Shown: positions 12,307 to 53,461, counted from the first letter of the stretch. The stretch: DNA of 64,000 bases from an uncultured Gemmatimonadales bacterium (GCA_963833905.1 CAWHZQ010000003.1:147509-211508); one strand, 5' to 3'. Numbers and translations are program-made. Notes: generated by a model not told the origin, from the letters alone.

Positions 12307-12381
12307 TTCACCACAGAGGCACAGAGGACACAGAGAACGACAGATAATTGGTCTCTGTGTCCTCTGTGTCTCTGTGGTGAA
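12307..12381. repeat. REP-like palindromic element, family B (copy B1, CACAGAGG units)
   Basis: Left arm TTCACCACAGAGGCACAGAGGACACAGAGA, loop ACGACAGATAATTGG, right arm TCTCTGTGTCCTCTGTGTCTCTGTGGTGAA. The 30-bp stem has 1 mismatch and lies 41 nt after the ahcY stop. GTGGTG(A/C)A recurs at 12375, 12393 and 12411. Confidence 0.85.
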
Positions 12382-12468
12382 GGGGCCGCGGGGTGGTGAA
12401 GGTGTCGCGTGTGGTGCAAAGAATGGCGGTTGCGGCGTGGCATCCCCGCCCGGAGTTATGATTCAAGC

Positions 12469-12960
12469 ATGATCGAAGTCACCGTGGCCCATCTGGGCCT
12501 CGACCGCACCACCAACACCCCCGTCGTCATCCTCCGGGAGAAGGACGGGTCGCGTGTGCTGCCCATCTGGATCGGGCCCGCGGAGGCGAGCGCCATCGCG
12601 ATGGAGCTCCAGGGCATGAAGGCCCAGCGGCCACTCACCCACGACCTCCTCAAGCAGATCCTCGTGGGCCTGGGCGGCGATCTCCGGCGGGTGGTGATCA
12701 GCGCGGTCAAGGAGAACACCTACTTCGCCGAGCTGCTCATCCGGCGCGACGACCACGTCTTCCAGGTCGACGCGCGGCCGTCCGACAGCATCGCCCTCGC
12801 CCTGAGAATGCGCGCGCCCATCTTCACCAGCGATCAACTGCTCGATCAGAGCGGCGTCGAGGCCGACGAGCCGTCGCCGAACCCGTCGCTCGAGGCGGAC
12901 AAGCTCAAGGAGTATCTCGAGCGCATGGATCCGCAGGACTTCGGGAAGTTCAATCCCTGA
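12469..12960 (+). CDS. Bifunctional nuclease family protein (DUF151-like)
   Basis: ATG 12469 lies in ORF 12409..12960. Motifs: VVILREKDGSRVLPIWIGPAEASAIA, THDLL, FQVDARPSDSIALALR. Confidence 0.7.
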   Translation: MIEVTVAHLGLDRTTNTPVVILREKDGSRVLPIWIGPAEASAIAMELQGMKAQRPLTHDLLKQILVGLGGDLRRVVISAVKENTYFAELLIRRDDHVFQVDARPSDSIALALRMRAPIFTSDQLLDQSGVEADEPSPNPSLEADKLKEYLERMDPQDFGKFNP

Positions 12961-12979
12961 GCGGGGGATGTCCTCCTCC

Positions 12980-13045
12980 GTCACCCTGAGCGCAGCGAAG
13001 GGGGCATGCCTTGGGTGATGCCCCCTTCGCTGCGCTCAGGGTGAC
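12980..13045. repeat. REP-like palindromic element, family A (copy A1)
   Basis: Left arm GTCACCCTGAGCGCAGCGAAGGGGGCAT, loop GCCTTGGGTG, right arm ATGCCCCCTTCGCTGCGCTCAGGGTGAC. The 28-bp stem is perfect and lies 20 nt after the upstream stop. Confidence 0.9.
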
Positions 13046-14194
13046 GATCGGTGTGGCGCTGGCCCTTGCCAGCGCGCCCGGTCTCCACGCCGTGCAGAGC
13101 CACGCCCCGCGCAAGGCAACCCCGCCCCCACCACCATCGTCGCCGGCCGCGTCGTCCTGCCCCGCGACGCGGACACCGTCCCGGTGCCCGGCGCCCGCGT
13201 GGTGCTCCACCGGGTCGGCCGCGACAGGCAGGGCCCGCTCGACTCCGCGATGGCCGACGCGTCGGGCCGCTTCCGTTTCCGCTTCCGGGCCGACACCGCG
13301 GCGATCTACCTGCTGAGCGCGCGCTGGGGCGACGTCGAGTACTTCTCTCCGCCGGTCCACACCAATCCCGCGCGGCCCGACACCGCGATGCGGCGTCGTC
13401 GTCTACGATACGTCCTCGACCGCGCCGATCGGGGTGGAGGCGCGCCACATCGTCGTGCCGCGCGCGGGGGCGGACGGGACCCGGTCGGTGCTCGACCTGA
13501 TCGTGCTCCGGAACGACGGCCGCGTGGCGCGCGTGGCGCCCGATTCCTCGCGGCCCTCCTGGCGCCTCGTGCTGCCACCCGGCGCCGGCGACATGCAGGT
13601 GGGCGAGAGCGACCTCTCGCCCGACGCCATCGTGCGCGAGGGCGACACGGTCAATGTGCTGGCGCCGCTCGCACCGGGGCAGAAGCAGCTCTCGCTCGAG
13701 TACAGCGTCACGCCGGTCCGGGGGAGGCTCGAGTTCCCCGTCGGATCGGGCGGCCCGGTCAACCTCCTCGTGGAGGAGCGGAACGCGCGCGTGAGCGGCG
13801 GCACGCTCGCACTGGCCGACAGTCAGGTCATCGAGGGGCGGAGCTTCCGGCGCTACACGGGAAACGTCCCGGCGGGCGGGAGCGTCGTGCTCGCCGTCGG
13901 CGCCGCCGGCGCGGCCGCTGTCACCCGCCTCGCCCTGCCGGTGCTGGTGGGCGCCGTGGCGGTGATGCTGGCCGCGGCCGCGTGGTGGCTGCTCGGCCGC
14001 CCGTCCCGGCGGGCATCCGCGCTCCAGCCCGAGCAGCTGCTCGATGCCATCGCCGCGCTCGACGCGCACTATGCGGGACGCGAGGCCGAGACCGCCGCCG
14101 ACGAGTGGGCGCGCTACGCGAGCGGAGCGGGCGCGGCTCAAGACGGAGCTTGAAGCGCGCTCTTGCGGCACGCGGCCGGTCCCCATACTCTTGA
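13041..14194 (+). CDS. Secreted/membrane-anchored protein with a CarboxypepD_reg-like domain and a C-terminal TM helix; at least 4 frame breaks; ends uncertain
   Basis: The N-terminus VTIGVALALASAPGLHA looks like a signal peptide. IVAGRVVLP..PGARVVLHRVG..ADASGRFRF resembles CarboxypepD_reg. The TM helix is LALPVLVGAVAVMLAAAAWWLL. Breaks lie near 13105, 13395 and 14130-14160. Confidence 0.45.
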
Positions 14195-14216
14195 GCCGCA
14201 AGGCACAATCGAAATA

Positions 14217-14374
14217 CGCGAATGGGGACGCTCGGAAACCGGTGCAATACCGGTGCGGCCCCGCCACTGTTACGGGCACGGCCTCTCAGGAGGACCGAAC
14301 TCTTCGCTCATGACGCCACTGGGTAACCGGGAAGGCGAGCGAAGGCCCGAAGCCAGGAGACCTCTCCGTTCGCG
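14217..14374 (+). promoter_or_regulatory. Cobalamin (B12) riboswitch aptamer
   Basis: P1 pairs CGCGAATGG 14217-25 with CCGTTCGCG 14366-74. The core reads GGAAACCGGTGCAATACCGGTGCGGCCCCGCCACTGTTACGG. GCCACTGGG..GGGAAGGC is also present. The B12 box GAAGCCAGGAGACC is at 14349-62. Confidence 0.85.
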
Positions 14375-14407
14375 CCACCAGTAATACCCTCGGGGGAGGG
14401 TTGGTGG
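14375..14407 (+). promoter_or_regulatory. Riboswitch expression platform (SD-sequestering hairpin)
   Basis: CCACCA 14375-80 pairs with TGGTGG 14402-07, and CCCTC 14387-91 pairs with GAGGG 14396-400. This buries the only strong SD (GGAGG) and the candidate starts TTG 14401 and GTG 14404. Confidence 0.5.
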
Positions 14408-14425
14408 CGTTGTCGACCGCGTCAG

Positions 14426-15379
14426 TTGCCGTCGCGCACCGCCTGTCTTCGACCCCGGGGATGGGCGGTTTCCATTTCCGGCATCCTGGCTCGATTCGGC
14501 GCGCTCGCGGCACTGCTGCTCTGGCAGGCCGCCTGCCGGCCGGCCGCGTCTCCGGCGGCCGGCACCCGCATCGTGGACGACGCGGGCGACACGGTCGTGG
14601 TCTCCGCGGCCGCGCGTCGCGTCGTCTCGCTCATTCCCGCCACGACCGAGCTGCTCTTCGCCATCGGCGCCGGTCCCGCCGTCGTCGGCCGCACCGCCTG
14701 GTGCGACTATCCGGCCGCCGCCGCCAGGGTGCCCGAACCTGGGCGACGGCATCGCGCCCAACGTCGAAGCCGTCCTCGCGAGCCGCCCCGACCTCGTCAT
14801 CCTGTACAACTCCGCGCAGAATGCCGATATCGCCGCTCGCCTGCGCCGGCTCGGCATCGCGGCGCTCCGCCTCAACACCGATTCCCTTGGTGATGTCGAC
14901 CGCGTCGGCCGGCTCCTCGGCCGCCTGACCGGCCACGCTGCGCGCCGCGGACTCGGTGGCGGCGGTGTTCGACACCGCGCTCGCGGCGGCGACGAGCGCC
15001 GGCGCCACCGCGCCGGCCCAAGGTGTTGCTGCTCGTCTGGGAGCAGCCCCCGATGACGATCGGTCGCGGGAGCTTCCTGAGCGAGCTGGTCGAGCGCGCG
15101 GGCGGGCGCAATCTCTTTGCGGACGTCACGTCGAGCGCGGGGACCGTGAGCATCGAGGCGGTCGCGTCGCGAGATCCGGACCTGATCCTCACGACCACCG
15201 CGGGCCCGGTGGGCTTCGCCGAGCGGCCCGAGTGGCGGACGGTCCGCGCCGTCCGCGAGCGGCGCTTCCTGCCGGTCAGCGGCTCGGAGTTCAACCGGCC
15301 CAGCCCTCGAGCGCCGGCCGCCATTCGTGAGCTCGCGCGCCTGCTGCGGGAGCGCGCCCTGATGCGGAAGCCCGCCTGA
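14426..15379 (+). CDS. Periplasmic cobalamin/siderophore-type substrate-binding protein (BtuF-like), with at least 3 frame breaks; start ambiguous
   Basis: The N-terminus LARFGALAALLLWQAAC looks like a lipoprotein signal. Motifs: VVSLIPATTELLFAIGAG, VVGRTAWCDYP, VLLLVWEQPPMTIGRGSFLSELV. Breaks lie near 14735, 14945 and 15020. Candidate starts are GTG 14404, TTG 14426 and ATG 14461. Confidence 0.7.
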
Positions 15380-16350
15380 TGCGCGTGGGTCTCTTCCTCC
15401 TCCCGGTGGCCGTCGGCCTCTGCCTGCTGGTGGGCCTGGCCGCGGGCACGGTCCCGCTCTCGCCGGCCGAGGTGTGGCACGGCCTCTGGCGGGCGAACGC
15501 GAGCGCGTCGGTCATCGTGCGCGACCTCCGCGCGCCGCGCGTGCTCCTCGCGTTCTTCGTCGGCGGGAGCCTCGCGGTGTGCGGCGCGGCGCTTCAGGCG
15601 ATGATCCGGAATCCGCTGGCGGAGCCATACCTGCTCGGACTCTCCGGCGGTGCGGGGCTCGGCGCCGTGATCGCCATCGCTACCCGGGCGACGGGGCCGT
15701 GGGCCGTGCCGGTGGCCGCCTTCCTCGGTGCCTCCGCCGCCGTGGCGCTGGTCTACCGGCTGAGCCTCGTGGCCGGCCGGCGACTGGATCCGCGCGTGCT
15801 GCTGCTCTCGGGCGTCGTGGTGGGCTCGTTCGCCGGCGCACTCATGAGCGCCATCATGGTGCTGTCGCCCGCGGCCGGCATCCGGAACGCCTTCCTCTGG
15901 CTGCTCGGCGGGTTCGGCTCGGCGTCCTGGCAGTCGCTCGGCGTGTTCCTCGCCTACGCCGTCCTTCCGCTCGGCGTCATCGGCCTGAGTGCCAGGAGCC
16001 TCGACCTGCTGGCCCTCGGTGAGGAGCCGGCCCATCACCTGGGCGCGGATGTTCACCGCACGCGCCGCATGGTCTACCTCTGCACCGCGCTGCTCACGGC
16101 GGCGAGCGTTGCCACCTGCGGCATCATCGGGTTCGTCGGGTTGGTCGTCCCGCACGCCGTCCGCACCGTCGCCCGCCCGCTGCACCGCTCACTGCTGCCG
16201 CTGGTCTTCGTGGTCGGCGGGTCGTTCCTGGTGCTGTCCGACGTCGTCGCCCGCACGGTGGTGCGGCCGCTGGAGCTGCCGGTCGGCGTCATCACCGCGC
16301 TCGTGGGCGTGCCGCTCTTCGCCCTGCTGCTTCGGAGGACGCTCGCGTGA
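15379..16350 (+). CDS. FecCD-family ABC permease (BtuC-like)
   Basis: The 323-aa ORF is intact and polytopic, with a FecCD-type sequence (LLGLSGGAGLGAV...). An ATGA overlap links it to the upstream gene. Confidence 0.85.
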   Translation: MRVGLFLLPVAVGLCLLVGLAAGTVPLSPAEVWHGLWRANASASVIVRDLRAPRVLLAFFVGGSLAVCGAALQAMIRNPLAEPYLLGLSGGAGLGAVIAIATRATGPWAVPVAAFLGASAAVALVYRLSLVAGRRLDPRVLLLSGVVVGSFAGALMSAIMVLSPAAGIRNAFLWLLGGFGSASWQSLGVFLAYAVLPLGVIGLSARSLDLLALGEEPAHHLGADVHRTRRMVYLCTALLTAASVATCGIIGFVGLVVPHAVRTVARPLHRSLLPLVFVVGGSFLVLSDVVARTVVRPLELPVGVITALVGVPLFALLLRRTLA

Positions 16351-17168
16351 TCCTCGAGGCGGAGAGCCTCACCGTGCGCTACCCGGCCACCGCGCGCCCC
16401 GCGCTCGACGGCGTGAGCTGCCGGGTGGGCGCGAACGAGCTCGTGGCCGTGGCCGGGCCCAACGGCAGCGGCAAGACCACGCTGGTCCGGGCGCTGTCGG
16501 GGCTGGTGCAGCCGGAGCACGGCGTGGTGCGCGTGCAGGCGCGGCCGCTGGCGGAGTGGGGACGGTCCGAGCTGGCCCGGGTCCTCGCGGTGGTGCCTCA
16601 GCGCGAGGAGATCGTGTTCCCGCTCCGGGTGGATGAAGCCGTCATGCTCGGTCGCTACGCGCGGCTCGGCTCGTTCGCGGCGCCGGGCGCGGCCGATCGG
16701 GCGGCGGTGCGGTCCGCCCTCGAGCGCTGCGACGCGGACACGCTCGCCGCGCGCTCGATCGACGCGCTCTCCGGCGGCGAGTGGCAGCGGGTCCGTCTGG
16801 CCCGCGCGCTGGCCCAGGAGCCGGCCGTCCTGGTGCTCGACGAGCCGACGGCATCGCTCGACGTGCGGCACGAGATGGAGCTGCTCGAGCTGATTCGGCG
16901 CCTGGTCGACCAGGGCCTCGCCGGTCTCGTGATCACCCACGAGCTCAACCTCGCCGCGCGCTACGCTGACCGAATCCTCCTGCTGAGCGAAGGCCGGGTC
17001 GTCGCCGAGGGCACGCCGCGGGAGGTGCTCGTGGAGGCGACGCTCAGCCGCGTCTTCGAGTGGCCGGTGGCGGTGACCACCTGGTCCGACGGGTCGCCGC
17101 AGGTGGTGCCGCTCCGACCGGGGGAGCGACAGGGGGTGCCCCTCCGGCCGGGAGAGCGACTCCCGTGA
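16347..17168 (+). CDS. ABC transporter ATP-binding protein (BtuD/FhuC-like)
   Basis: The 273-aa ORF is intact. It has Walker A GPNGSGKTTL, signature LSGGEWQRV and Walker B VLVLDEPT. Confidence 0.85.
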   Translation: MILEAESLTVRYPATARPALDGVSCRVGANELVAVAGPNGSGKTTLVRALSGLVQPEHGVVRVQARPLAEWGRSELARVLAVVPQREEIVFPLRVDEAVMLGRYARLGSFAAPGAADRAAVRSALERCDADTLAARSIDALSGGEWQRVRLARALAQEPAVLVLDEPTASLDVRHEMELLELIRRLVDQGLAGLVITHELNLAARYADRILLLSEGRVVAEGTPREVLVEATLSRVFEWPVAVTTWSDGSPQVVPLRPGERQGVPLRPGERLP

Positions 17169-17192
17169 GCCGATCCGTTTTGGCGGTTGGTT

Positions 17193-17295
17193 TTCACCAC
17201 AGAGGCACAGAGGGCACAGAGACGTGCCGAGGCCGGGGTGAGCAGCAACAACACCTTCTTGCTGTTCTCTGTGCCCTCTGTGCCTCTGTGGTGAA
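17193..17295. repeat. REP-like palindromic element, family B (copy B2, CACAGAGG units)
   Basis: TTCACCACAGAGGCACAGAGGGCACAGAGA and its exact reverse complement flank a 42-nt loop containing AGCAACAACAC. It lies 25 nt after the btuD-like stop and ends 5 nt before receptor ATG 17300. Confidence 0.9.
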
Positions 17296-17299
17296 TCTG

Positions 17300-19394
17300 A
17301 TGCCCGTAAGCCACCGGCGTCTCGCCAGGCGAGTCGGGACGCCGCCAGCCGCATCTCACGCCCTGCTGGCGTTGCTGATTGGGTTCCTCGCCGCGCTTGT
17401 TCCCGCGCACGCGGCCGCACAGGGCCCCGCTCGCCTGCTCGGCCGCGTGGTTGACCTGATCACCCGGCAGCCGGTGGCGGGCGCCGAGATCCGCGCCGGC
17501 GAGCAGCAGGCGATCACCGGAAACGATGGGAGCTTCGTTCTCGGCAACGTCCCGCCGGGCCGGGTCGAGCTGCGGGTGCGGCGGATCGGCTACGCGCCCG
17601 CGCGGGAGGTGCTCGAGCTGTTGCCGGGCCTCGAGCGCCACGTGGGCGTGGCGCTCGAGCCGCTCCCGGTCCGGCTCGACAGTCTCACCGCCACGGCGGC
17701 CCCGGGAGGGATCGCGATCGCCGGGGCCGAGCTCGAGCGCCGGGGCGGTGATCTCGCGCGCGCGCTCGACGGATGGGAAGGCGTGGCCGTCCGGCGCGCC
17801 GGCAATGGGCCGGCCGCTCCTCAGGTGCGTGGCAGCGGGCCGGACGAGGTGCTCGTGCTGGTCGACGGGTTTCCGGTCAACGATCCGCTCACCGGGCGCG
17901 CCGACCTCAGCCGCATCTCGAGCCGGGAGGTCGAAGCCGTCACCCTTCTTCCCGGCGCCCAGACCGTCCGCGCCGGCAACCGCGCGGTCGGCGGCGTCCT
18001 CATGGTCGAGACCCGGCGCGATGTCCGTCCCGAGGGCTCCACCTGGACCGGCAGCCATGGCGCGCTCGGGCTCCGGCTCGGCGGTTCGACCGGGGCGCTC
18101 ACGGCCAGCGCGTCGGCGGAGCGACAGGGGGCCGATTTCGCCTACACCGTGCCCGAGGTGCGCGGTGGCGGCGAGAGCGTGCGCCGGAACGCCGGCGGCG
18201 AGCAGTGGGCCGCGGGTATTACCCTCGCCGGACCGGTCGAGGTGGTGTTGCGGGGCAGTCTCTCGGACCGCGGCCTTCCGGGGACCACTACCAATCCGAC
18301 CCTTCATGCACGCGCCCAGGATCGCTCGGTGCTGTTGGGTGCACGGACCTCGGGACGGCTCTATTCGAGCGCATCCCTGCAGTGGCTCGAGACGCGCGCG
18401 ACCGATCCGGCGCCGCCCATTGGCGCGGCCTACGACGCCTACACCCACGGCGTCGGCGGCACGGCTGAGCTCGGCTACCGGGTGCCGCTGTCGGTCGCCG
18501 GATGGCGGGGCAGCGCGGCCGTCGCCGGGGAGGGCAGGGGCAACCGCTTCGCGGGCGACGGCATCCGCGCCGATGCCTCGTTCTCGCAGGCCGCCATCAA
18601 GCTCGATGCTCGCTTCGCGCCCGCCGCGCGCGTCGCCCTGGTCGGTGGCGCCGGCAGCCCGGCTCGACGTCTGGACCGGCTCGACCACACCGCGCGTGAG
18701 CGCCCGGATCGACGCGGGCTGGCAGCGCGGCGGCACCGCGTTGACGCTCGCCGTCGGCAGCGCGGTGACGCCGCCGGTGCTGGCCGATCTGTTCTTCCGG
18801 GAAGGCGTCGGCGTCCGGCTCAATCCCGATCTCCGGCCCGAGCGGGTCCGTTGGGAGGTGGAGGCGGGCCTTCGCCGCGAGCTCGGCGGCGGCTCGACGG
18901 TCGGCATCCGCGGCTTCGTCGGCCAGGTGGCGGACATGATCATCTGGGCGCCGGATTTCCGCTTCATCTGGAGCCCGCGGAACTTCGACGTGGTGCGGCG
19001 CGGCGGCGAGCTTTCGGTCGGCTGGCGCGCGCGCGCCAACCTTCGCGCCAGCGGCAGCGCGACGTACAGCGCCGTCACCTACGACATCCCCGGTGGCGCC
19101 CAGGTGCTCTATCGGCCTCGCGTCACCTACGACGCCTCCGTGGTCTGGTCGCCGGGGCCGTGGACCGCCGACCTGCGCTGGCACCGGATCGGCCGGCGCT
19201 TTCCCAACAGCGCGGGCACCAACCCGCGCCCGGCCTTCTCGCTCCTGGACGTCGGACTCGAGCGCCGGCTCGGCGCGGGCCTCGGGCTCCGCGGCGAGGT
19301 TCGCGATCTCACCGACCGGCGGGCCGAGTTTCTCGCCGCCTATCCGACGCCCGGACGAAGCGTCCTCCTCACTCTCACCCTGGTGGTTCCATGA
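17300..19394 (+). CDS. TonB-dependent outer-membrane receptor with an N-terminal CarboxypepD_reg domain (BtuB-like by context), with one frame break near 18660
   Basis: Signal peptide LIGFLAALVPAHAAAQ, then RLLGRVVDLITRQPVAGAEI..GNDGSF. The plug reads VRGSGPDEVLVLVDGFPVNDP. The barrel continues in the frame of ORF 17526..19394. It lies downstream of the B12 riboswitch. Confidence 0.8.
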
Positions 19395-20461: not shown

Positions 20462-20503
20462 AGCGACGCGGCGGGCGTGCCGGCGGGGTGTAGATTTCAG
20501 CGC

Positions 20504-23107: not shown

Positions 23108-23209
23108 CACCTCGCCTTTTGAGCGGCCATCTTCCGCATGCTTACCAGCATCCGTTCGTTTTCTGTGGAGGTGCCCACCGTTCGACACTTTGTCAGATGA
23201 GGTACGCCC

Positions 23210-23665: not shown

Positions 23666-23666
23666 G

Positions 23667-23702
23667 AGGGGCGGCCCGGGTGGGCCGTCCCTTTCGTGCT
23701 TT
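23667..23702 (+). terminator. Intrinsic terminator candidate
   Basis: GGGGCGGCCC, loop GGGT, GGGCCGTCCC (1 mismatch), followed by TTTCGTGCTTTC. It lies directly after the stop at 23665. Confidence 0.55.
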
Positions 23703-23803
23703 CTGGTGGGAGGCGGACTGGGACTGCCAATGTGGCAGAAATCGAGGGTACGCGGGTTGCTTTCGCGGTGGGCGAGATGTGCTATCGTGACTCAGTAGCC
23801 CCG

Positions 23804-23885
23804 TCATCCCGAGCGGAGCGAGGGACCTTGCCAGCGAATGGCTCGCGCAGCGGAGCGAGGAGATCCCTCGCTCCGCTCGGGATGA
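23804..23885. repeat. REP-like palindromic element, family A (copy A2)
   Basis: TCATCCCGAGCGGAGCGAGGGA and its exact reverse complement flank a 38-nt loop. The loop holds a partial third half-site, GCAGCGGAGCGAGGAGA. The element lies in the clpB leader and ends 25 nt before ATG 23910. Confidence 0.9.
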
Positions 23886-23909
23886 GCCCGACCGTACCAG
23901 AGGAAACCA

Positions 23910-28139: not shown

Positions 28140-28363
28140 GGCGCGACGTGGCCGCCGCGCTCGCGGCGGGCCGCGCACCGGCGCCGCTCGGCGAGCTCCC
28201 GGAGCTGGCGTCAGGGACGGAATCGCCGCTCCTTCGAGGACGGCTGACGCGACTCGGCCGCCAGCTCAAGGCCCTGCACGACGCTGCGGCGCGCTGGGCG
28301 GAGGGGTAGAGAACCGGGTCGGGCGGATGTACACTTCCGACCCGAATTCGTCGTCGGGACCCT

Positions 28364-28450
28364 GGACAGGTGTCCGAGTGGCTGAAGGAGCCGGTCTCGA
28401 AAACCGGTAAACCGGCAACGGTTTCGAGGGTTCGAATCCCTCCCTGTCCG
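28364..28450 (+). tRNA. tRNA-Ser (anticodon CGA)
   Basis: Acceptor stem GGACAGG/CCTGTCC plus discriminator G. Anticodon loop CTCGAAA. It has a long variable arm and the T-arm GAGGGTTCGAATCCCTC. Confidence 0.9.
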
Positions 28451-28589
28451 TCAAAGCAAGTGCACGCCGTTCGCTCCTGCAGCGCGTGTCGCCCAAGCTG
28501 CCTGTCGCCGGCGACTCGCCGAATCCTGGAACGACCTTCCCACCTGCTGCCTCCGTCGAGCCGACCGCCACCTTAACGATTGGGAGACG

Positions 28590-33227: not shown

Positions 33228-33253
33228 GGACGAATCGTCGGCGAGCACGAATC

Positions 33254-33334
33254 GTCATCCCGAGCGAAGCGAGGGATCTACTCGGCGGGTCTCGAGCCCG
33301 GGTTGAGAAGGTCCCTCACTTCGCTCGGGATGAC
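33254..33334. repeat. REP-like palindromic element, family A (copy A3)
   Basis: GTCATCCCGAGCGAAGCGAGGGA, a 35-nt loop, then TCCCTCACTTCGCTCGGGATGAC (1 mismatch). It lies 27 nt after the cysK stop. Confidence 0.9.
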
Positions 33335-33403
33335 GGCGCGCGGCGGAGAGCGGTTCTCCGCCGCAACCTTTTCCACCCACACACCACTGAGGCGCAGCCA
33401 CAC

Positions 33404-35576: not shown

Positions 35577-35648
35577 CGTCACCCGAGCGAAGCGAAGGGC
35601 GGCAATGCCTCGAGGCATTTGCCCCCTTCGCTTCGTCTCAGGATGACG
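35577..35648. repeat. REP-like palindromic element, family A (copy A4, degenerate)
   Basis: CGTCACCCGAGCGAAGCGAAGGGCGGCAATGCC, loop TCGA, then GGCATTTGCCCCCTTCGCTTCGTCTCAGGATGACG. The pairing is imperfect. It sits between convergent genes, 17 nt after the glnN stop. Confidence 0.8.
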
Positions 35649-42415: not shown

Positions 42416-42421
42416 CCGCCC

Positions 42422-43850: not shown

Positions 43851-46442
43851 GGCGTTGGCGTCTGAGCGCGCGCGCGCCCGGTCGACCGATCGGCGCGTTC
43901 GGCTTCGCTATCGGGGCGCTCGGTCTCCTCGTCGGCGCGCTTGGCCTCGTCGTCTGCGCGCTTCCAGCCGCCGCCCAGCGCGCGCCCGTCCTGCAGCAGA
44001 TCAAAGTCCGCCACCCCTACTACTACCGCGAGATGTTTGTTCCCCAGGTGACGAGCGGGCCGAGCGCGGCCGCGTGGTCACCCGACGGCACCGAGCTGGT
44101 GTACTCGATGCAGGGCTCGCTCTGGCGTCAGCGCGTAGGATCGAATGAGGCGCTCCAGCTCACCGACGGCCCCGGATATGACTATCAGCCCGACTGGTCG
44201 CCCGGACGGGCGCCGCATCGTCTACGCCTCATACCGCGACGACGCGATCGAACTTCGGCTGCTCGACCTCGCCACCCGGGAGTCGACGCAGCTCCTCGCC
44301 GGCGGCGCGGTGCACTTGGAGCCCCGCTGGTCGCCGGATGGCCGTCGGCTGGCCTTCACGTCCACGCTGTATGAAGGCCGATGGCACGTCTTCACCGCCG
44401 ATGTCACGCCGGACGGCCGGCTCGAACGGGTCGAGCGCATCAGCGAGGATCACGAGAGCGGCCTCCCGCGGTACTACTACAACACGGTGGATCACGCGCT
44501 CTCGCCGACCTGGTCGCCGGACGGGCGTGAGGTGATCGTGGTCTCGAACCGGGGCCACGTCTGGGGCTCGGGCGGCTTCTGGCGGATGGAGGCTCGCCCG
44601 GGCGGCGCGGCGCGGGAGATCCGGGACGAGGAGACGACCTGGAAGGGGCGGCCCGACTGGAGCCGCGACGGCCGCCGCGTGGTCTACAGCTCCTATCTCG
44701 GCGGCCAATGGAACCAGCTCTGGCTGATGACGCCCGACGGGTCGAATCCGCTGCAGCTGACCTACGGGGCGTTCGACGCCACCGCGCCCCGCTGGTCGTT
44801 CGACGGGCGGCACGTGGCCTACGTGTCGAACGAGGGCGGGAACACGTCGCTCTGGGTGCTCGATGTGCCGGGCGGCAAGAGGACCGCGATTCGTGCGGAG
44901 CGGCGACGACTATCGCTCGCCGGTGGGACGGCTTCGGCTCCGGGTGACGGACGCGCGCGGGGCCACGGTGCCGGCCCGGGTCTCGGTCACGGGCCCCGAC
45001 GGCCGAAGCTGGGCGCCCGATGACGGCCTGGCGCCACGCGGACGACGGCTTCGACCGGCGCGAGCGGCGCTTCGAATACGGGTATTTCCACACGACCGGG
45101 CTGGACTCGCTCACCCTGCCGGCCGGCGAGTACGCCGTCGAGGTGACGCGCGGCCCCGAGACCCGGGTCGAGCGGCGGACGATTGCCATCCGCGCCGGCC
45201 ACGACGGCGCGCTCCGGCGTCTCCCTGGCGCCGCTCGGCGACCTCGCCCGGCGCGGCTGGTACAGCGCCGACCTGCACGTGCACATGAACTACGGCGGCG
45301 CCTACCGCACCACGCCGCGCCGGCTGGCGTTCCAGGCGCGGGCGGAGGACCTCGACCTGGTCGGAGAACCTGATCGTCAACAAGGAAGGGCGCATCCCCG
45401 ACATCGAACGGCCGGTCGGCCGCGACCCGGTCTCCACCGCCACGACCGTCGTGGTGCACGATCAGGAGTATCACACCAGCGTCTGGGGCCATATCGGCCT
45501 GCTCGGGCTCCGCGATCACGTGCTGCTGCCGGGCTACGCCGGCTACGCGGCGACTGCGGCCGCCAGCCTCGCGCCGACCAATGCCGAGGTCGCGGATCTC
45601 GCGCGAGCGCAGGGCGCGCTGGTCGGCTACGTGCATCCGTTCGACAGCGACCCCGATCCCGCCGACACCACGCATCCCCTCACGGCCGAGTTCCCGGTCG
45701 ACCTGGCGCTCGGCAAAGTGGACTACTACGAGGCGCTCGGCTTCGTCGACGACCCGATGGCGACGGCGCACGTCTGGTACCGCGCGCTCAACTGCGGCTT
45801 CCGCCTGCCGGCGGGCGCGGGCACCGACGCGATGGCCAACTTCGCCTCGCTGCGCGGGCCGGTGGGGATGAACCGCGTCTACGTTCGCACCGGCGGGCGG
45901 CTCGACCAGCGGCGGCTGCTCGATTCGCTCAAGGCCGGCCGGACGTTCGCGACCAACGGCCCGCTGCTGGAGCTGACGATCGACGGACGCGGCGTGGGCG
46001 ATGAGCTCCGGCTCGGCGGATGGCACACACGAGGTCGTCGCGCGGGTGTCGCTCCGGTCGAACGTGCCGGTCGATCATCTCGAGATCGTGGGGAACGGTG
46101 AAGTCGTGAAGGAAGTGCCCCTGGCGGGCGATCGCACCCGTGCCGACGTGGAGGTCCGGCTGCCGGTGACGGCGAGTGGCTGGTTCCTGCTGCGGGCACG
46201 GAGCGATCGGGCGATCTATCCGGTGCTGGATCTGTATCCCTACGCGACGACCAGCCCGGTGTACGTGACCGTTGGCGGCAAGCCGGCTCGTTCGCCGGTG
46301 GACGCGGCGTACTTCGTGGCCTGGATCGACCGGCTGGCGGCGGCGGCGCGGGCGAATGCGGACTGGAATACGGTGGCGGAGCGGGACCATGCGCTCGGAC
46401 TTGATCGAGCAGGCGCGGGAGGAGTTCGAGCGGCGGCGCTGA
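43847..46442 (+). CDS. Secreted TolB-like beta-propeller fused to a CehA/McbA-type (PHP-like) metallohydrolase, with at least 7 frame breaks
   Basis: GTG 43847 forms a GTGA overlap and is followed by a signal peptide. WSPDG repeats occur at least 4 times. Hydrolase motifs: WYSADLHVHMNYGG, VHDQEYHTSVWGHIG, GYVHPFD, AGTDAMAN. Pieces lie in ORFs 42422.., 44145.., 44863.., 45020.., 45183.., 45451.. and 46001... Confidence 0.65.
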
Positions 46443-46503
46443 GAGTGTAGCGTGCCAGGCGCGCCGCAGCGCCGCCGTCATCCGTGCCGAACCGTCGACC
46501 CGC

Positions 46504-46680
46504 TCACACCCACTCCACCACCATCGCAATCCCCTGTCCAACCCCCATGCACATCGTCGCCAGGCCTAGCGCCGCCGCCGCGTGTGCAAGACCGCGGGTT
46601 CGGGCATCTCCCGCCTGCGTCCCGCTGCCCGGGGACCGCTGCCCAGTCGTGCCATCACCTGCAGCTGGAGAATCCGATGC
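46504..46680 (-). pseudogene. 3'-terminal remnant of a thiolase (acetyl-CoA acetyltransferase) gene
   Basis: The tail of ORF 46504..46827(-) reads ALGLATMCMGVGQGIAMVVEWV then stop. GLATMCMGVGQGIA fits the thiolase C-terminal Cys signature. An adjacent frame reads AVLHTRRRR. No thiolase-like sequence lies further upstream, where the vWA gene is encoded on the opposite (+) strand. Confidence 0.5.
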
Positions 46681-48625
46681 GAACCGATCGCTGGCTCCGT
46701 TCCCGGCGCGTGCCGGGTCTCGTCGCCGTGCTGTGTCTCTCGCTCGCCACCGCGGCCGCCGCGCCGGTTCGTCACGGGCCCTCGACCGGCCGCGTGACCG
46801 GGCACGTCCGGGACGGCCAGGGCACACCGGTGCCCTACGCGCAGGTCATCGTGGTGGGCAGCGCGCTGTCGGCGCTCACCGATACCGCCGGGGCGTACCT
46901 GCTGCCGGCGGTGCCCGCGGGTCCCGTCACGATCCGTGCGACCCGCGTCGGGATCGGCTCGGCCGAGCTGGCCGGGACCGTCCGGGCCGGGAGCACGCTC
47001 ACGCTCAACTTCACGCTCGGCGATCAACGGGCCGCGGCGCGCCAGCTCGCGGAGGAGAAGGACGCCGCCAAGGCGGCCGCCAACTCGCCGTTGGCCTCCG
47101 CCATGCTCCGCCGGGAAGATTCCCGAATCAGAGGCGTCGCCACCGGCGTCGCGGCGACCCCGGCACCGGAGCCCTGGCGCTGGGCCCAGGAGCCGGGCAA
47201 CACCGAGGCGTACAACACGGTCGACGAGCACCGCTTTCTCGCGGCCGCAGCCAACCCGGTCTCGACCTTCTCCATCGACGTGGACGCCGCCTCGTACAGC
47301 AACGTCCGCCGCTTCCTGAGCCAGGGGACGCTGCCGCCCAAGGACGCGGTCCGGCTCGAGGAGCTGGTCAACTACTTCCCGTACCGCTATGCCGACCACA
47401 GCGGCCGCCATCCCTTCGCCGTCTCGACCGAGGTCGGTCCGTGCCCCTGGTCGCCGGAGCATCGGCTCGTCCGCATCGGCCTCCAGGCCCGCCGCGTGCC
47501 GACGCGAGAACCTGCCGCCGAGCAACCTGGTCTTCCTGATCGACGTCTCGGGCTCGATGATGTCGCCCGACAAGCTGCCGCTGGTCCAGCAGGCGTTCCG
47601 GGCGCTGGTGCACGAGCTCCGGGAGCAGGACCGGGTGGCCATCGTGGTCTACGCCGGAGCGGCGGGCCTGGTGCTGCCGTCGACCAGTGGCGCCGAGAAG
47701 GCCACGATCCTCGAGGCGATCGACCGCCTTCAGGCCGGCGGGTCGACGGCCGGCGGCGCCGGCATCCGCCTCGCCTACGACGTCGCGCGCCAGCACTTCG
47801 ATCGGGAAGGCAACAACCGCGTCATCCTGGCCACCGACGGCGACTTCAACGTGGGCGTGAGCTCCGACGCCGAGATGGTGCGCCTGGTGGAGCAGCGCCG
47901 CGAGGAAGGCACCTTTCTCACCGTGCTGGGCTTCGGAACCGGCAACCTGAAGGATTCGAAGATGGAGCAGATGGCCGACAAGGGAAACGGCCACTACGCC
48001 TACATCGACAGCTTCCGCGAGGCCCAGAAGGTCTTCGTGCAGGAGTTCGGCGGCACGCTGTTCACCGTCGCGAAGGACGTGAAGATCCAGGTCGAGTTCA
48101 ACCCGGCCCGGGTGCAGTCCTACCGGCTGCTTAGGCTACGAGAACCGCACGCTGGCGCGCGAGGACTTCGCGGACGACCGGAAGGACGCCGGCGAGCTCG
48201 GCTCGGGCCACTCGGTGACGGCGCTGTACGAGATCGTGCCGGTGGGGGCCACGCCGGTGGCGCTGGGTGACGACAGCTTGACCTACCAGCAGGTCTCGAT
48301 CCGGCCCGAGGCCAGCAGGAGCCGAGAGCTGATGACCGTGCGGCTCCGCTACAAGGATCCGCAGGGGTCGACCAGCCGGCTGCTCGAGGAGCCGGTGCGG
48401 GACCGGTCTGTCGGCGCGGCGTCGGAGGATATGCGCTTCGCCTCCGCGGTCGCCGCGTTCGCGCTGCTGCTCCGCGACTCTGAGCATCGCGGCCAGGCCA
48501 GCTATGAGCAGGTGCTGTCGCTCGCCCGCGGCGCGCGCGGGGAAGATCCCCAGGGTTACCGCGGGGAGTTCATCGGCATGGTGGAAACTGCGCGGACCCT
48601 CAGCGCCTCGTCGCGCACTGATTGA
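46677..48625 (+). CDS. YfbK-like von Willebrand factor A protein with an N-terminal CarboxypepD_reg domain, with two frame breaks (near 47505 and 48130)
   Basis: A signal peptide is followed by [19 protein letters not shown]. Further motifs: [30 protein letters not shown] (MIDAS), [18 protein letters not shown]. Confidence 0.8.
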
Positions 48626-48661
48626 CTTCGTCCAAACCTTCCGTTAGTCATCTCTCGCGCT

Positions 48662-48685
48662 CCGCCGGCCGATCGTGGCCGGCGG
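48662..48685 (+). terminator. GC hairpin after the vWA gene (no U-tract)
   Basis: CCGCCGGCC, loop GATCGT, GGCCGGCGG. The 9-bp stem is perfect and lies 37 nt after the stop. Confidence 0.35.
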
Positions 48686-48761
48686 GCCCGGGACGACCAG
48701 CCCGAGAACACGTCGACCGCCCATTGCGCTCTCCCTGGAGCGTACTGTGGACAACCCCGCC

Positions 48762-50338
48762 ATGACCAGCGCCGAATTCTTCGATCGCCTTCGAGTCACC
48801 ACGGAGTTCCTCGAGGCCATCGTCGGGGATCGCGGGCTGCTGGCCCAGGCCTCGCCTGACGACCAGCGACGGCTGCTGCAGGCCGCCGGCCAGGTGTATG
48901 CCCCGGATGCCAATGCCCGGCGACAGCTCGTGCGCGCGAGTGTGCGTCGCCGGAAGGCCGAACGGGTGCGGCGCGAGGACCAGGTGCTCGACCAGACCGG
49001 GATCCGGACGCTCCGCCGGCGGCCGGTCATCACCACGCCCAACGTGTTTCCGCCGCCCGGCTTCGAAGCCCGCGACAGCGACGGCGATCCGGACATCAGG
49101 GAAGCCATCGAGCCGCAACACTGCTACGTGTGCAAAGCGAAGTACACGGAGCTGCACCACTTCTACGATCAACTCTGCCCCGCCGTGCGCCGCCTTCAAC
49201 TTCGCCAAGCGCACCGAGCTCGCCGACCTTCGGGGCCGGGTGGCGCTCCTCACCGGCGGCCGCGTGAAGATCGGCTACCAGGCGGGTCTCAAGCTGCTGC
49301 GGTCCGGCGCGCACCTCATCGTCACCACCCGCTTTCCCCGCGACTCGGCCGATCGGTATGCCGCCGAGCCGGACTTCGGCGACTGGGGGCACCGCCTCGA
49401 GATCTTCGGGCTCGACCTGCGCCATACGCCGAGCGTGGAGGCGTTCTGCCGGGAGCTGATCGACACCCGGGATCGGCTCGACTTCATCATCAACAACGCC
49501 TGCCAGACGGTGCGCCGGCCGCCGGCGTTCTACGAGCACATGATGGTCCGCGAGCGGGAAGCCTTCCGCGGCATGCCGGCGCAAACTCGCCGGCTCCTGG
49601 GCCACTACGAGGGCTGGCGCGAGACGCACCCGGCGCCGGCGGGCGCGTCGGCCATCACTCCGGCTGCGTTCGAACGACGGCTTCCCAGCATTGCCGGGCA
49701 TGGCGGACGCGGCCGAGCTCTCCCAGGTCAGGCTTCTGCCGGAGGAGTATCAGGTCCAGGCCCATCTCTTTCCGGAAGGCCGCCTGGATCAGGATCTGCA
49801 GCAGGTCGACCTCCGGGAGCACAACTCCTGGCGGATGCTGATGGCGGACGTGCCTTCGGTCGAGCTGCTGGAGGTGCAGCTCATCAACGCGGTCGCGCCG
49901 TTCGTGTTGAACGCGCGACTCAAGCAGCTCATGCTGCGGACGCCGGATCGGGATAAGCACATCGTCAACGTGTCGGCCATGGAAGGCCAGTTCTACCGGA
50001 ACTTCAAGACGGTTCGCCATCCCCACACCAACATGGCCAAGGCGTCGCTGAACATGATGACGCGCACATCGGCGGCCGAATACCAGAGTGATGGGATTCA
50101 CATGAACAGCGTGGATACGGGCTGGGTGACGGACGAAGACCCGGTGGACGTGGCCGCCCGGAAGGTCGCGGAGCACCGCTTCCACCCGCCGCTCGACACC
50201 GTGGACGGTGCCGCGCGCATCGTGGATCCGATCATCGCCGGGATCAACACCGGGGAGCACGTCTGGGGGAAGTTTCTCAAGGATTATCCGCCCACGGATC
50301 TGGTGACTCGTGGTGCGAACGGGCGCCGGTCTCAATAG
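48762..50338 (+). CDS. Extended short-chain dehydrogenase/reductase with an N-terminal Cys4 region, with 2-3 frame breaks (near 49185, 49690, possibly 50300)
   Basis: It opens MTSAEFFDRL. The Cys4 region reads CYVCKAKYTELHHFYDQLCPAC. SDR motifs: VALLTGGRVKIGYQ, FIINNACQT, NVSAMEG, HPHTNMAKASLNMMT. Confidence 0.7.
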
Positions 50339-50360
50339 ATTGCGCGCTGTCGGTGGTGAG

Positions 50361-50450
50361 GGAGCGGTGGCCGAGTGGTTGAAGGCGCTCGCCTGGAAAG
50401 CGAGTTACCGGTCAAAAGCCGGTACGAGGGTTCGAATCCCTCCCGCTCCG
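50361..50450 (+). tRNA. tRNA-Ser (anticodon GGA)
   Basis: Acceptor stem GGAGCGG/CCGCTCC plus discriminator G. Anticodon loop CTGGAAA. It has a long variable arm and the T-arm GAGGGTTCGAATCCCTC. Confidence 0.9.
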
Positions 50451-50534
50451 TACGCGGTAAGCTGTCAACTCCCTGGACGCTACCGCGCTCCGCGAGTTGC
50501 GCGGTCGGTGGCCCCGGACTAGCTTCCCGCCCCG

Positions 50535-51067
50535 ATGCCCTCCAGGATCCCCCTTCTCGACGAGCGCGCACTCGGCCGGACCCTCGTGCGCATGGCCACG
50601 GAAATCGTCGAGCGCGCCGGGGGCACCGACAGCCTGGTACTCGTCGGCATCCAGCGCCGCGGCGTCGAGCTGGCCGACCGCCTGAAGCGCCTCATCGATC
50701 AATCCGAAGGCTCCGCCGTTCCCGTCGGCAAGCTCGACATCACCCTCTATCGCGACGACCTCCAGACCGTCGGGCCACGGCCCGTCGTCGGCGAGACCCG
50801 GCTGCCCAACCTCGACGGGCGCACGGTGGTCATCGTCGACGACGTGCTCTACACCGGCCGCACCGTCCGGGCCGCGCTCGACGAGTGCGCCGACTTCGGC
50901 CGGCCGCGCCGGATCCTGCTCTGCGTGCTCATCGACCGCGGCGGGCGCGAGCTCCCGATCCAGGCGGACATCGTAGGCACCACCGCGAGCACGGAGCCGC
51001 GGACCGGGTGGATGTGTTCGTCGCCGAGCTCGACGGCCGGGACGCGGTCGAGCTGGTGCGGGCCTGA
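50535..51067 (+). CDS. pyrR: Bifunctional pyr operon regulator / uracil phosphoribosyltransferase PyrR, with one frame break near 50995 (looks like a 1-nt deletion)
   Basis: Motifs: [35 protein letters not shown]. The C-terminus [21 protein letters not shown] lies in the frame of ORF 50375..51067. Confidence 0.8.
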
Positions 51068-51068
51068 G

Positions 51069-52028
51069 ATGACCACCCCGAGCCTCGGCAAGGACCTGGT
51101 CGGCCTGGAGCCGCTGAGCGCGGACCAGATCCGGCTCATCCTCGACACGGCGGAGCCGTTCAAGGAAGTGAGCGAGCGGCCGATCAAGAAGGTGCCGGCG
51201 CTTCGCGGGAAGACCATCGTCAACCTGTTCTTCGAGGCCTCCACCCGGACCCGGATCTCGTTCGAGTTCGCCGAGAAGCGGCTGAGCGCGGACACGGTGA
51301 ACGTGGCCGTGGCGGGCTCGTCGGTCTCCAAGGGCGAGACGCTGGTGGACACGGCGCGGAACCTCGAGGCCATGCGGATCGACATGGTCGTCATCCGCCA
51401 CGGCGCGTCGGGCGCGGCGCAGTTCCTCGGCCAGCGCATTCGCTCCAACGTCATCAACGCGGGCGACGGCAAGCACGAGCACCCGACCCAGGGCCTGCTC
51501 GACATCCTCACCCTGCGCGACCGGTTCAAGCGGATCGAGGGCCTCAAGGTCGCCATCTGCGGCGACATCCTCCACAGCCGCGTGGCGCGCAGCAACATCT
51601 GGGGCCTGCTCAAGCTGGGCGCCCAGGTCGGCGTCTGCGGCCCGGCCACGCTGCTGCCGCGCAACGTCCACGAGCTCGGCGTCACCATCCTCCCGCGGAT
51701 CGAGGATGCCATCCAGTGGGCGGATGCGCTCAACATCCTCCGCCTCCAGCTCGAGCGCATGCAGTCCGGCTTCCTGCCCTCGCTGCGCGAGTACAATCGC
51801 GTCTTCGGCGTCACCAGCGAACGGCTGGCGAAGGCCCCCAAGGACCTCCTCATCCTGCACCCCGGCCCGATGAACCGCGGAGTCGAGATCGACAGCGACG
51901 TGGCCGACGGCCCCCACAGCGTGATCCTGCCCCAGGTGACCAACGGCGTCGCCGTGCGCATGGCGGTGCTCTACCTGCTGGCCGGCGGCTCGCCCGACTG
52001 GGCCCACCCGGGCGGCGGGGGAGACTGA
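51069..52028 (+). CDS. pyrB: Aspartate carbamoyltransferase catalytic subunit
   Basis: ATG 51069 is in the frame of ORF 50535..52028 and the gene is intact. Motifs: [31 protein letters not shown]. Confidence 0.95.
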
Positions 52029-52030
52029 GC

Positions 52031-53317
52031 ATGCGGCCGATTCTCATCCGGGGCGGACGGATCCTCGATCCCTCGCGCAACACCGACCAGGTGGCCGACC
52101 TCCTGCTGCAGGACGGCAAGGTCGAGGCGCTGGGCCAGAACCTCGGCCGGCCCGACGGCGCCGACGTGCTCGACGCGGCGGGGAAGGTGGTGGCCCCCGG
52201 CCTCATCGACCTCCACGTGCACCTGCGGGAGCCGGGCCAGGAGGACGTGGAGACCGTCGCCACCGGCGCCATGGCCGCCGCCGCCGGCGGATTCAGCGCG
52301 GTGTGCGCGATGCCGAACACCGATCCGGTGACCGACAACCAGGCGGCCGTCGGCTTCATCGTGAGCCAGGCGCAGCGGGCAGGGAAGGCGCGAGTGTATC
52401 CCATCGGCGCCATCTCGCTCGCGCAGCAGGGGCAGCAGCTGGCGGAGTTCGGCGAGCTCGTGGGGGCGGGCGCCGTGGCGGTGAGCGACGACGGGAAGCC
52501 CGTCGTCTCGAGCCACCTCATGCGCACCGCGCTCGAGTACGCGCGCACGTTCGGCATCCCGGTGGCGGATCACTGCGAGGACCCCACGCTCGCCGCGGGC
52601 GGCGCGATGCACGAAGGGCTGGTCTCGACCCGGCTCGGCCTCAAGGGCGTCCCGTCGGCGGCGGAAGAGATCATGGTGGCGCGCGACATCCTGCTCGCCG
52701 AGCTGACCGGCGGCCACGTGCACCTGTGCCACATGTCGACGCGAGGATCGGTCGAGCTCATCCGGCGAGCCAAGGAGAAGGGGCTCAGGGTGACGGCGGA
52801 GGCCTGCCCGCACCACTTCACGCTGACCCACGAGGCGTGCGAGGGCTACAACACCAACGCGAAGATGAACCCGCCACTCCGGGAGCCCGAGGACCGCGAG
52901 GCGATCCGGCAGGGGCTGCGCGACGGCACGATCGACGTGATCTGCACCGATCACGCGCCGCATCACTACGATGCCAAGGAGCGCGAGTTCGACGACGCGC
53001 CCAACGGGATCATCGGGCTGGAGACGGCGCTCGGCCTCGCGATCACGGAGCTGGTGGACGGCGGGCTCCTCGATCTCGCCACGCTCGTGACCCGGATGAG
53101 CACCATGCCGGCCCGGATCTTCGGCCTGCCCGGCGGCACGCTGGCGCGCGGATCGGCGGCGGACGTGGTGGTGATCGACCCCGCGGCCCAGTGGACGGTC
53201 GAGCCCGAGACCTTCTACTCCAAGAGCCGGAACACCCCGTTCGCCGGCCGCCGCCTCCGGGGCCGGGCGGACGTGACGATCGTGCGCGGGCAGGTGGTCT
53301 TCCGGCGCGGGGGGTGA
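52031..53317 (+). CDS. pyrC: Dihydroorotase
   Basis: ATG 52031 lies in ORF 51716..53317 and the gene is intact. Motifs: PGLIDLHVHLREPG, AMPNTDP, HLCHMST, TDHAPH. Confidence 0.9.
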   Translation: MRPILIRGGRILDPSRNTDQVADLLLQDGKVEALGQNLGRPDGADVLDAAGKVVAPGLIDLHVHLREPGQEDVETVATGAMAAAAGGFSAVCAMPNTDPVTDNQAAVGFIVSQAQRAGKARVYPIGAISLAQQGQQLAEFGELVGAGAVAVSDDGKPVVSSHLMRTALEYARTFGIPVADHCEDPTLAAGGAMHEGLVSTRLGLKGVPSAAEEIMVARDILLAELTGGHVHLCHMSTRGSVELIRRAKEKGLRVTAEACPHHFTLTHEACEGYNTNAKMNPPLREPEDREAIRQGLRDGTIDVICTDHAPHHYDAKEREFDDAPNGIIGLETALGLAITELVDGGLLDLATLVTRMSTMPARIFGLPGGTLARGSAADVVVIDPAAQWTVEPETFYSKSRNTPFAGRRLRGRADVTIVRGQVVFRRGG

Positions 53318-53361
53318 GATCTCGGTGCAGTCCAAGGATTCAATTTGAGCGTGTGCGGCTC

Positions 53362-53461
53362 TTCACCACGAAGACACGAAGGACACGAAGGAACACGAAG
53401 ACAAGCAACAACACGGTGGTTTTCTTCGTGGCCTTCGTGGCCTTCGTGCCTTCGTGGTGAA
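53362..53461. repeat. REP-like palindromic element, family B (copy B3, CACGAAGG units)
   Basis: TTCACCACGAAGACACGAAGGACACGAAGGAACACGAAGA, a loop containing AGCAACAACAC, then TTCTTCGTGGCCTTCGTGGCCTTCGTGCCTTCGTGGTGAA. It lies 45 nt after the pyrC stop. Confidence 0.9.

Follow-up and report, generated by a model that had tools for sequence, protein, structure and literature searches.

The window analysed here, a stretch of 64,000 nucleotides (nt) from an uncultured Gemmatimonadales bacterium (CAWHZQ010000003.1:147509-211508), has a G+C content of about 71% and nearly all of its protein genes on the + strand. It carries three long intergenic hairpins, B1, B2 and B3, and the subject of this report is the repeat family to which they belong (family B) and the relation of that family to a gene encoding the GxxExxY protein. 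B1 is situated between ahcY (adenosylhomocysteinase), whose product has 92–94% identity to Gemmatimonadales proteins, and a gene with a BFN domain. B2 is flanked by the genes for an ABC ATPase and a TonB-dependent receptor, which belong to a transport operon headed by a cobalamin riboswitch. The gene upstream of B3 encodes an amidohydrolase. All three upstream genes are on the + strand, with stop codons at 12266 (B1), 17168 (B2) and 53317 (B3). The gaps are 40, 24 and 44 nt, respectively, i.e. each hairpin begins shortly after a stop codon, as had been proposed in a preliminary description of the locus.

The positions given in that description, 12307–12381 (B1), 17193–17295 (B2) and 53362–53461 (B3), are exact. 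Each element opens with TTCACCAC and closes with GTGGTGAA, and Tandem Repeats Finder shows a period of 8–9 in both arms, in agreement with the tandem 8–9-nt units that had been reported. The arms consist of TTCAC followed by three (B1, B2) or four (B3) units, each a 7-nt core with 1–3 spacer bases (Table 1). Arm complementarity is 97% in B1, 100% (30/30) in B2 and 94% over 32 nt in B3. As RNA, the hairpins have minimum free energies of −68 (B1), −76 (B2) and −75 (B3) kcal/mol, with z-scores of −9.7 to −12.7 and none of 200 shuffled sequences as stable; as DNA, the values are −35, −46 and −45 kcal/mol, with z-scores of about −10 to −11. The window has 8 copies of TTCACCAC, where 0.77 would be expected, and 6 of the unit pattern, where 0.00 would be expected.

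The mirrored difference between AGA units (B1, B2) and GAA units (B3) is real and is present on both arms; the full pairing that had been claimed for it does not hold, since B1 has one G.T pair and B3 has unpaired spacer bases. The loop 11-mer AGCAACAACAC is common to B2 and B3 as stated, and none of 205 other loci compared carries it. Three GTGGTG(A/C)A copies do follow B1, but they start at 12374, 12393 and 12411, so that the spacing is 19 and 18 nt rather than a uniform 18 nt. A similar reiteration of the right terminus is found 3′ of elements in L153, L052 and L074 (Lnnn labels are those of the loci compared with the window).

Table 1. Parts of the three family-B hairpins in the 64-kb window
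Feature	Position	Strand	Description
B1 left arm	12307–12336	.	TTCAC + 3 CACAGAG units, spacers G, GA, A
B1 loop	12337–12351	.	15 nt; dissimilar to the loops of the orthologous copies in L201–L203
B1 right arm	12352–12381	.	3 complementary units + GTGAA; one G.T pair with the left arm
Two extra B1 right termini	12393–12418	.	GTGGTGAA at 12393–12400, GTGGTGCA at 12411–12418
B2 left arm	17193–17222	.	TTCAC + 3 CACAGAG units
B2 loop	17223–17265	.	43 nt; AGCAACAACAC at 17244–17254
B2 right arm	17266–17295	.	complementary to the left arm, 30/30
B3 left arm	53362–53401	.	TTCAC + 4 CACGAAG units
B3 loop	53402–53422	.	AGCAACAACAC at 53404–53414
B3 right arm	53423–53461	.	4 CTTCGTG units + GTGAA; cores pair, several spacer bases unpaired

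A pattern scan gave at least 120 loci in species-representative genome contigs and at least 120 in IMG/VR viral contigs. The view that the hairpins belong to a genuine family, dispersed and with unit variants that are mirrored between the arms, is borne out. The matches listed span more than 15 bacterial phyla and one archaeal (Methanotrichaceae) bin; among them are Acidobacteriota, Planctomycetota, Chloroflexota, four proteobacterial classes, Cyanobacteria, Verrucomicrobiota, Thermotogae, Armatimonadetes and Bacteroidota. In 758 arms with at least three units, the unit number is 3 in 672 and 4 in 83, core spacing is 8 or 9 nt, the spacers are purines, and TTCAC is the commonest pentamer 5′ of the first core (399/758). 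Cores are found as CACAGAG, CACGAAG, CACGGAG and CACAAAG, and a sister series consists of CGCAGAG, CGCAAAG, CGCGGAG and CGCCGAG. The median length of paired gene-less elements is about 120 nt. The family is defined operationally by TTCAC...GTGAA termini and by 3–4 C[A/G]CNNAG cores at 8–9-nt spacing with purine spacers, mirrored on the opposite arm; B1–B3 display both the termini and the cores.

An assembly artefact, raised earlier as a possible explanation, is ruled out by the presence of the element in a finished isolate genome and its conservation in independent assemblies. A search of the window with Rfam at the gathering score showed no hairpin family, only a cobalamin riboswitch and two tRNAs, and in 12 related loci at E ≤ 0.1 only sub-threshold look-alikes of miRNA precursors were found. 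The view that no formal description of the family exists is upheld both for Rfam and for the full-text-searchable literature: neither the arms nor their gene-less derivatives are described in the accessible literature on the unit sequences, PF13366, TIGR04256, GxxExxY or Gemmatimonas repetitive extragenic palindromes (REPs). Thus the hairpin element is very widespread and apparently undescribed.

Loops frequently contain other small palindromes or nested CGC-type hairpins. L288 displays three near-identical copies (695–762, 1723–1816 and 5208–5310), in each of which a CAC-type hairpin is nested in CGC-type arms, and L064 has near-identical tandem copies at 4416–4655; both indicate recent intragenomic copying.

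In L098 the arms exactly enclose a 123-aa open reading frame that is GxxExxY (TIGR04256, E-value = 7e-45; PF13366, E-value = 2e-43). A reverse test was made with 80 metagenomic GxxExxY loci chosen by protein similarity alone (54–85% identity). Under a strict rule (left array 5′ and right array 3′ of the gene, each no more than 140 nt away), 52 of the 80 loci have the gene between arms. Another 23 have at least one array beside the gene but are arranged differently (an array on one side only in 11, left/left in 4, right/right in 3, right/left in 2, a right-type array upstream only in 2 and, in 1, an upstream stretch too short to score), and 5 show no array at all. The arrays are typically 0–30 nt from the start codon and 4–20 nt from the stop codon of the gene. 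Arms in the same arrangement flank GxxExxY in the finished genome of Lacimicrobium alkaliphilum (CP013650). Loop lengths are bimodal, mostly 0–150 nt, with a sharp second peak at 350–450 nt that represents the gene.

The full-length form can thus be written as TTCAC, 3–4 copies of C[A/G]CNNAG with 1–2 purines, the 123-aa GxxExxY gene, the complementary units and GTGAA. The anatomy of the B1–B3 arms is exactly that of the arms enclosing GxxExxY genes. In the databases, over-called proteins begin and end with peptides that the arms encode: homologues are found that start with HHEEHEGTRRM, SPRRARRTRRM, MHHRDTENTEM or TAETQRTQRK, and some end in ...LCALCASAVNA. The unit type of the arms also tracks the clade of the enclosed GxxExxY protein.

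The gene upstream of GxxExxY is co-oriented with it in 35 of 39 loci, and mostly no more than about 10 nt separate its stop codon from the left terminus, which suggests that GxxExxY is expressed by read-through or translational coupling. At 1458–1500 in L206–L215, a Desantisbacteria population, the upstream dCTP-deaminase gene reads through the left arm and ends at the TAA of a CACTAAG unit variant; here the element gives the gene its C-terminus and its stop codon.

GxxExxY is the only recurrent cargo found inside the arms. As a separate observation, the arm pair at 2757–3162 of L306, an IMG/VR contig, encloses a 113-aa open reading frame with a DUF6527 match (E-value = 7e-11) and no GxxExxY, DUF6527 being an occasional alternative cargo. 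Clustering of the open reading frames beside about 160 arms yielded no recurrent protein family, and had first suggested that the element has no partner gene at all; L098 and the reverse test overturned that.

The preliminary description had pointed to REPs and to their REP-associated tyrosine transposase (RAYT). The partner found is a different one, the GxxExxY gene for a predicted PD-(D/E)XK nuclease situated between such arms. It is hardly credible that family B consists of REPs, or of REPINs (hairpins of paired REPs), moved by a RAYT (an IS200/IS605-like tyrosine transposase), or of classical miniature inverted-repeat transposable elements (MITEs) of a DDE transposon. Such an origin would fit the scattered intergenic occurrence of the palindromes, several per 64 kb, and the conservation of their termini, and the tandem clusters in L064 and L074 resemble arrays of the bacterial interspersed mosaic element (BIME) kind. 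However, a target-site duplication (TSD) of 3 nt or more accompanies only 1.3% of 79 elements, against 2.9% of shuffled pairings, GxxExxY is the only family that recurs beside the arms, and a stem of three 8–9-nt units is unlike REP anatomy. In addition, the same unit sequences are found across phyla, whereas REP/RAYT pairs are lineage-specific. No RAYT link turned up in the clustering of open reading frames beside the approximately 160 arms, although no RAYT-directed search was made.

GxxExxY is catalogued as PF13366 and TIGR04256, and the one survey in which it is listed assigns it no known function and reports multiple transfers (PMC3424549). The L098 protein is a genuine member; the flanking arms and the gene-less forms are additions to what the accessible literature of the family holds. 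Protein searches with GxxExxY and PF13366 gave at least 8000 matches each. Residues D67, E77, K79 and E27 are invariant across diverse members. An AlphaFold2 model (mean predicted local distance difference test score, pLDDT, 85.8) displays an alpha-alpha-beta-beta-beta-alpha-beta core, and its best structural neighbours in the PDB are Cas4 SSO0001 (E-value = 5e-4) and lambda exonuclease. PADLOC shows a weak Cas4 match, and neither a PDB sequence search nor a PHROGs search with GxxExxY gave a match. From the model and these residues, GxxExxY resembles a PD-(D/E)XK nuclease of the Cas4/lambda-exonuclease fold type and is predicted to be one. Proteins with 80–95% identity are found in Gammaproteobacteria, Desantisbacteria, Bipolaricaulota, an archaeon and Desulfobacteraceae. 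The gene has probably spread by horizontal transfer, in agreement with the multiple transfers of the survey.

Internally deleted copies are seen directly in four places: L036, L153, L216 and the Desantisbacteria population. In L216 a decayed partial copy follows the Lacimicrobium GxxExxY gene. The Desantisbacteria copy, 172 nt in length, retains 33 nt from the start of the gene and ~50 nt from its end between the left arm and a short right arm; it is polymorphic within one population and stands in tandem with an intact copy. B1–B3 would have arisen in the same way, by internal deletion of the gene-carrying form. Thus B1–B3 appear to be gene-less, non-autonomous (MITE-like) members of a widespread selfish GxxExxY cassette, a reading to which we assign a probability of roughly two in three.

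The opposite order of events is unlikely. By this account the gene-less hairpin is older, GxxExxY is a homing endonuclease gene that invades its loops, and B1–B3 are empty homing sites. Gene-less copies far outnumber gene-carrying ones, the loops take other inserts as well (nested CGC-type hairpins, family-A palindromes and one DUF6527 open reading frame), and the arm length is about the minimum for homologous recombination. The deletion intermediates, however, show traffic from gene-carrying to gene-less forms, and a hairpin-first origin gives no account of how hairpins reach new loci. That unit type tracks protein clade was also set against it, but this does not discriminate, as homology-dependent homing predicts the same.

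The mirrored unit variants had been taken to argue for selection on base pairing or for a copying mechanism in which one arm templates the other; neither is borne out. The unit type is the same on both arms in 47 of 52 gene-carrying elements, 64 of 79 gene-less elements and 52 of 71 viral-contig elements. A unit-level permutation test was used in place of a covariance model because models that depend on an alignment are less informative when unit number and loop length vary. Position-matched identity in mixed-unit elements is 41/80, 38/79 and 38/83, compared with within-element permutation means of 38.4, 34.0 and 35.4, i.e. a unit matches its pairing partner no more often than it does the other units across the stem. 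Most mismatches are transitions, G.T being about as frequent as A.C. Counts of G.U and A.C are 56 and 61 in gene-sense orientation, and 99 and 110 in gene-less copies. Position-specific covariation and a tolerance of G.U over A.C, as expected of a structured RNA, are not found. Hybrid elements with CACAGAG on the left and CTTCGTG on the right are present in L237 (177–277), L286 (1217–1300), L037 (1072–1266) and L056 (2803–3073), and their stems have two mismatches per unit.

The agreement between arms, the tracking of protein clade, the null permutation result, the equal frequency of G.T and A.C and the existence of hybrids together indicate that mirroring is a signature of the element as a whole; it holds only at that level. 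On the sequence comparisons, mirroring would come from lineage or recognition specificity and not from base-pair compensation. The AGA of B1 and B2 versus the GAA of B3 is a subfamily signature and not the product of compensatory evolution.

These results also bear on the proposal that the elements are host-selected RNA hairpins, in which a stable stem downstream of the stop codon serves as a terminator, as protection for the 3′ end of the mRNA or as a target of RNase III, and pairing is under selection. The position of B1–B3, each 24–44 nt after a + strand gene, and the extreme stability of the stems agree with it. Further agreement comes from the spacer orthologous to the ahcY–BFN spacer, in which B1 is kept in related Gemmatimonadales, while L204 and L205 have another hairpin there, as if one were needed. 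Against this, G.U is not in excess over A.C, mixed-unit elements show no position-wise compensation, and poorly pairing hybrid arms persist. A role in termination had also been suggested, but B1 and B2, the two elements inside the region scanned for terminators (12100–17500), were not called and lack a T-tail (their tails read GGGGCC and TCTGAT, respectively). B3, whose tail reads GACGCC, is outside the scanned region. B2 is moreover within an operon, with the ABC ATPase and TonB-receptor genes on either side, and the primary sequence of the units is conserved across phyla, which selection on structure alone does not predict. Host-selected RNA hairpins are thus considered quite improbable.

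Very improbable is an origin by fold-back or templated synthesis, in which a short template is copied repeatedly and, after snap-back, one arm copies the other. The perfect 30/30 arms of B2, the many elements that are perfect including their spacers (e.g. L035 and L065) and the uniformity of unit type within most elements are as this mechanism would have it. But complementarity is 95% in the cores and 75% in the spacers, a difference that also counts against arm-templated copying as proposed in the preliminary description. Unit number is fixed at three, sometimes four, mixed units are not mirrored by position, and the arms enclose a 370-nt gene, which snap-back synthesis would not place there.

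The orthologous ahcY–BFN spacer was compared in related Gemmatimonadales. The B1 left arm is 30/30 identical in L201–L203, whose loop and flanks are unalignable with those of the window. The left arm has been kept while loop and flanks diverged, so that the arms must be under constraint or else be renewed time and again. In L204 (3840–4060) and L205 (3850–3950) a different tandem-unit hairpin, with GGTGAGC/GGTAAGC heptamers against CCGCTCA/CCGCTTA, is found where the window has B1 (the region orthologous to 12267–12408). It would seem that hairpin families replace one another at this intergenic position. All the relatives compared have either B1 or another hairpin in the orthologous spacer, and none has an empty site.

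If B1–B3 belong to the GxxExxY cassette, the element may spread as follows. The three-unit arrays would be the recognition sites of the cognate nuclease, which would cut at or in such arrays. Repair of the break from another copy, with the arms of about 30–40 bp as homology, would spread the gene or restore the arms in a homing-like process that involves no transposase. Movement would thus take place by nuclease-triggered recombination. Internal deletion would remove the gene and leave short hairpins such as B1–B3, and these gene-less hairpins would be acted on only in trans. The long stable stems, when present in 3′ untranslated or intercistronic RNA, may incidentally alter mRNA stability or processing.

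Several points weigh against the assignment of B1–B3 to the cassette. The GxxExxY gene is absent from the 64-kb window (tblastn of the window alone), and it is present in only 2–3 of the loci found by pattern, which amount to roughly 2 Mb in all. A blastx comparison of the B1–B3 loops with the gene showed no gene remnant, and their derivation by deletion is therefore argued from the intermediates found elsewhere. The loops of copies in the same genome are usually unrelated, unlike those of a recent MITE burst, with L288 and L064 as exceptions; loop-versus-loop blastn found almost no loops in common. B2 and B3 share the loop 11-mer, yet every arm unit differs between them (AGAG versus GAAG), and the cassette gives no account of this joint switch in type of all units on both arms. 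Protein residues are only weakly associated with unit type, an association that is confounded by phylogeny. Finally, a PD-(D/E)XK hydrolase is by itself unable to carry out strand transfer.

A broader proposal is put forward tentatively and is on balance somewhat doubtful. It holds that GxxExxY cassettes may be an unrecognised class of mobile element, whose minimal nuclease, of the Cas4/lambda-exonuclease-like PD-(D/E)XK kind, would read the three tandem 8–9-nt sites of each inverted arm. By setting off recombination, and without a transposase or TSD, the nuclease would spread its own gene and keep up thousands of gene-less hairpins. Such cassettes would lodge after the stop codons of expressed genes, where read-through would express them, in most bacterial phyla, some archaea and viral contigs, with family B as the non-autonomous form.

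Other features are found near the three hairpins and elsewhere in the window. A small hairpin with a T-run lies 5′ of each element (12290–12311, 17169–17192 and 53340–53363), and the element begins in or just past the T-run. The best defined of these, GCCGATCCGTTTTGGC followed by GGTTGGTTTT, is situated immediately before B2. The small hairpin and T-run may be a remnant of the original terminator. Immediately 5′ of B2, at the 3′ end of the ABC ATPase gene, there is also a tandem duplication (17100–17160) of 30 nt in two copies that are 87% identical. The cobalamin riboswitch is at 14234–14361 (Rfam, 63.6 bits), with the FecCD permease gene, the ABC ATPase gene, B2 and the TonB receptor gene downstream of it. 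The two tRNA genes, at 28363–28452 and 50361–50450, are both tRNA-Ser (anticodons CGA and GGA).

The window also carries a second palindrome family (CGTCAYCCYGAGCGNAGCGARGG and its mirrored sequence) at 12979–13046, 23804–23885, 33253–33335 and 35588–35635, with complementarity of up to 29/29. GTCATCC..GAGCG..GGATC palindromes akin to this second family are found in or beside family-B loops in other phyla (L060, L054 and L097).

The association described here offers a testable role for a very large orphan family, with GxxExxY proposed as a nuclease linked to a particular DNA repeat, and it accounts for hairpins that litter the intergenic regions of many phyla. These hairpins also corrupt gene calls, producing spurious HEGHEG, TEDTE and SVVK peptide ends. 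The unit variants give a caution of more general use: mirrored arm variants in dispersed palindromes can be signatures of lineage and not of selection on RNA structure. If mobility driven by a nuclease is true, it would represent a new, transposase-free way for small elements to spread. No description of the arms or of their link to GxxExxY was found in Rfam or the searchable literature, and the hairpins are regarded here as palindromic elements of the non-autonomous kind whose type of partner protein is new.

Among known systems, REPs, BIMEs and REPINs with their RAYT are likewise short, dispersed intergenic palindromes, often just 3′ of genes, and likewise far outnumber the one protein gene that presumably acts on them. 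Conservation within lineages and an ability to affect mRNA stability are further points in common. The partner here differs, as it is a predicted PD-(D/E)XK protein, GxxExxY, and not a Y1 HUH transposase. The stems here consist of three 8–9-nt units whose sequences recur across many phyla, and the gene lies inside the hairpin, whereas REPs flank their gene at a distance.

Free-standing homing endonuclease genes, which include PD-(D/E)XK types, are comparable in that a small selfish nuclease gene spreads horizontally among distant taxa and appears to pass through cycles of gain, decay and loss; spread by break repair would leave no TSD. In the present case a hairpin dispersed in many copies takes the place of the conserved host gene as presumed target and homology, and cleavage is predicted only. 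The intervening sequences of 23S rRNA also have a small open reading frame within a long stem of flanking inverted repeats in a host transcript. Their open reading frame belongs to PF05635 and lies in rRNA, in contrast to GxxExxY and mRNA 3′ regions here, and they are not known to have tandem-unit arms.

MITEs such as Correia, ERIC and Nezha are also comparable with family B. They are gene-less and non-autonomous, have terminal inverted repeats, are co-transcribed with their neighbours, and are derived by internal deletion from longer gene-carrying copies. The elements described here differ from MITEs in showing neither a TSD nor a DDE transposase, and in having inverted repeats that are themselves built of tandem repeats.

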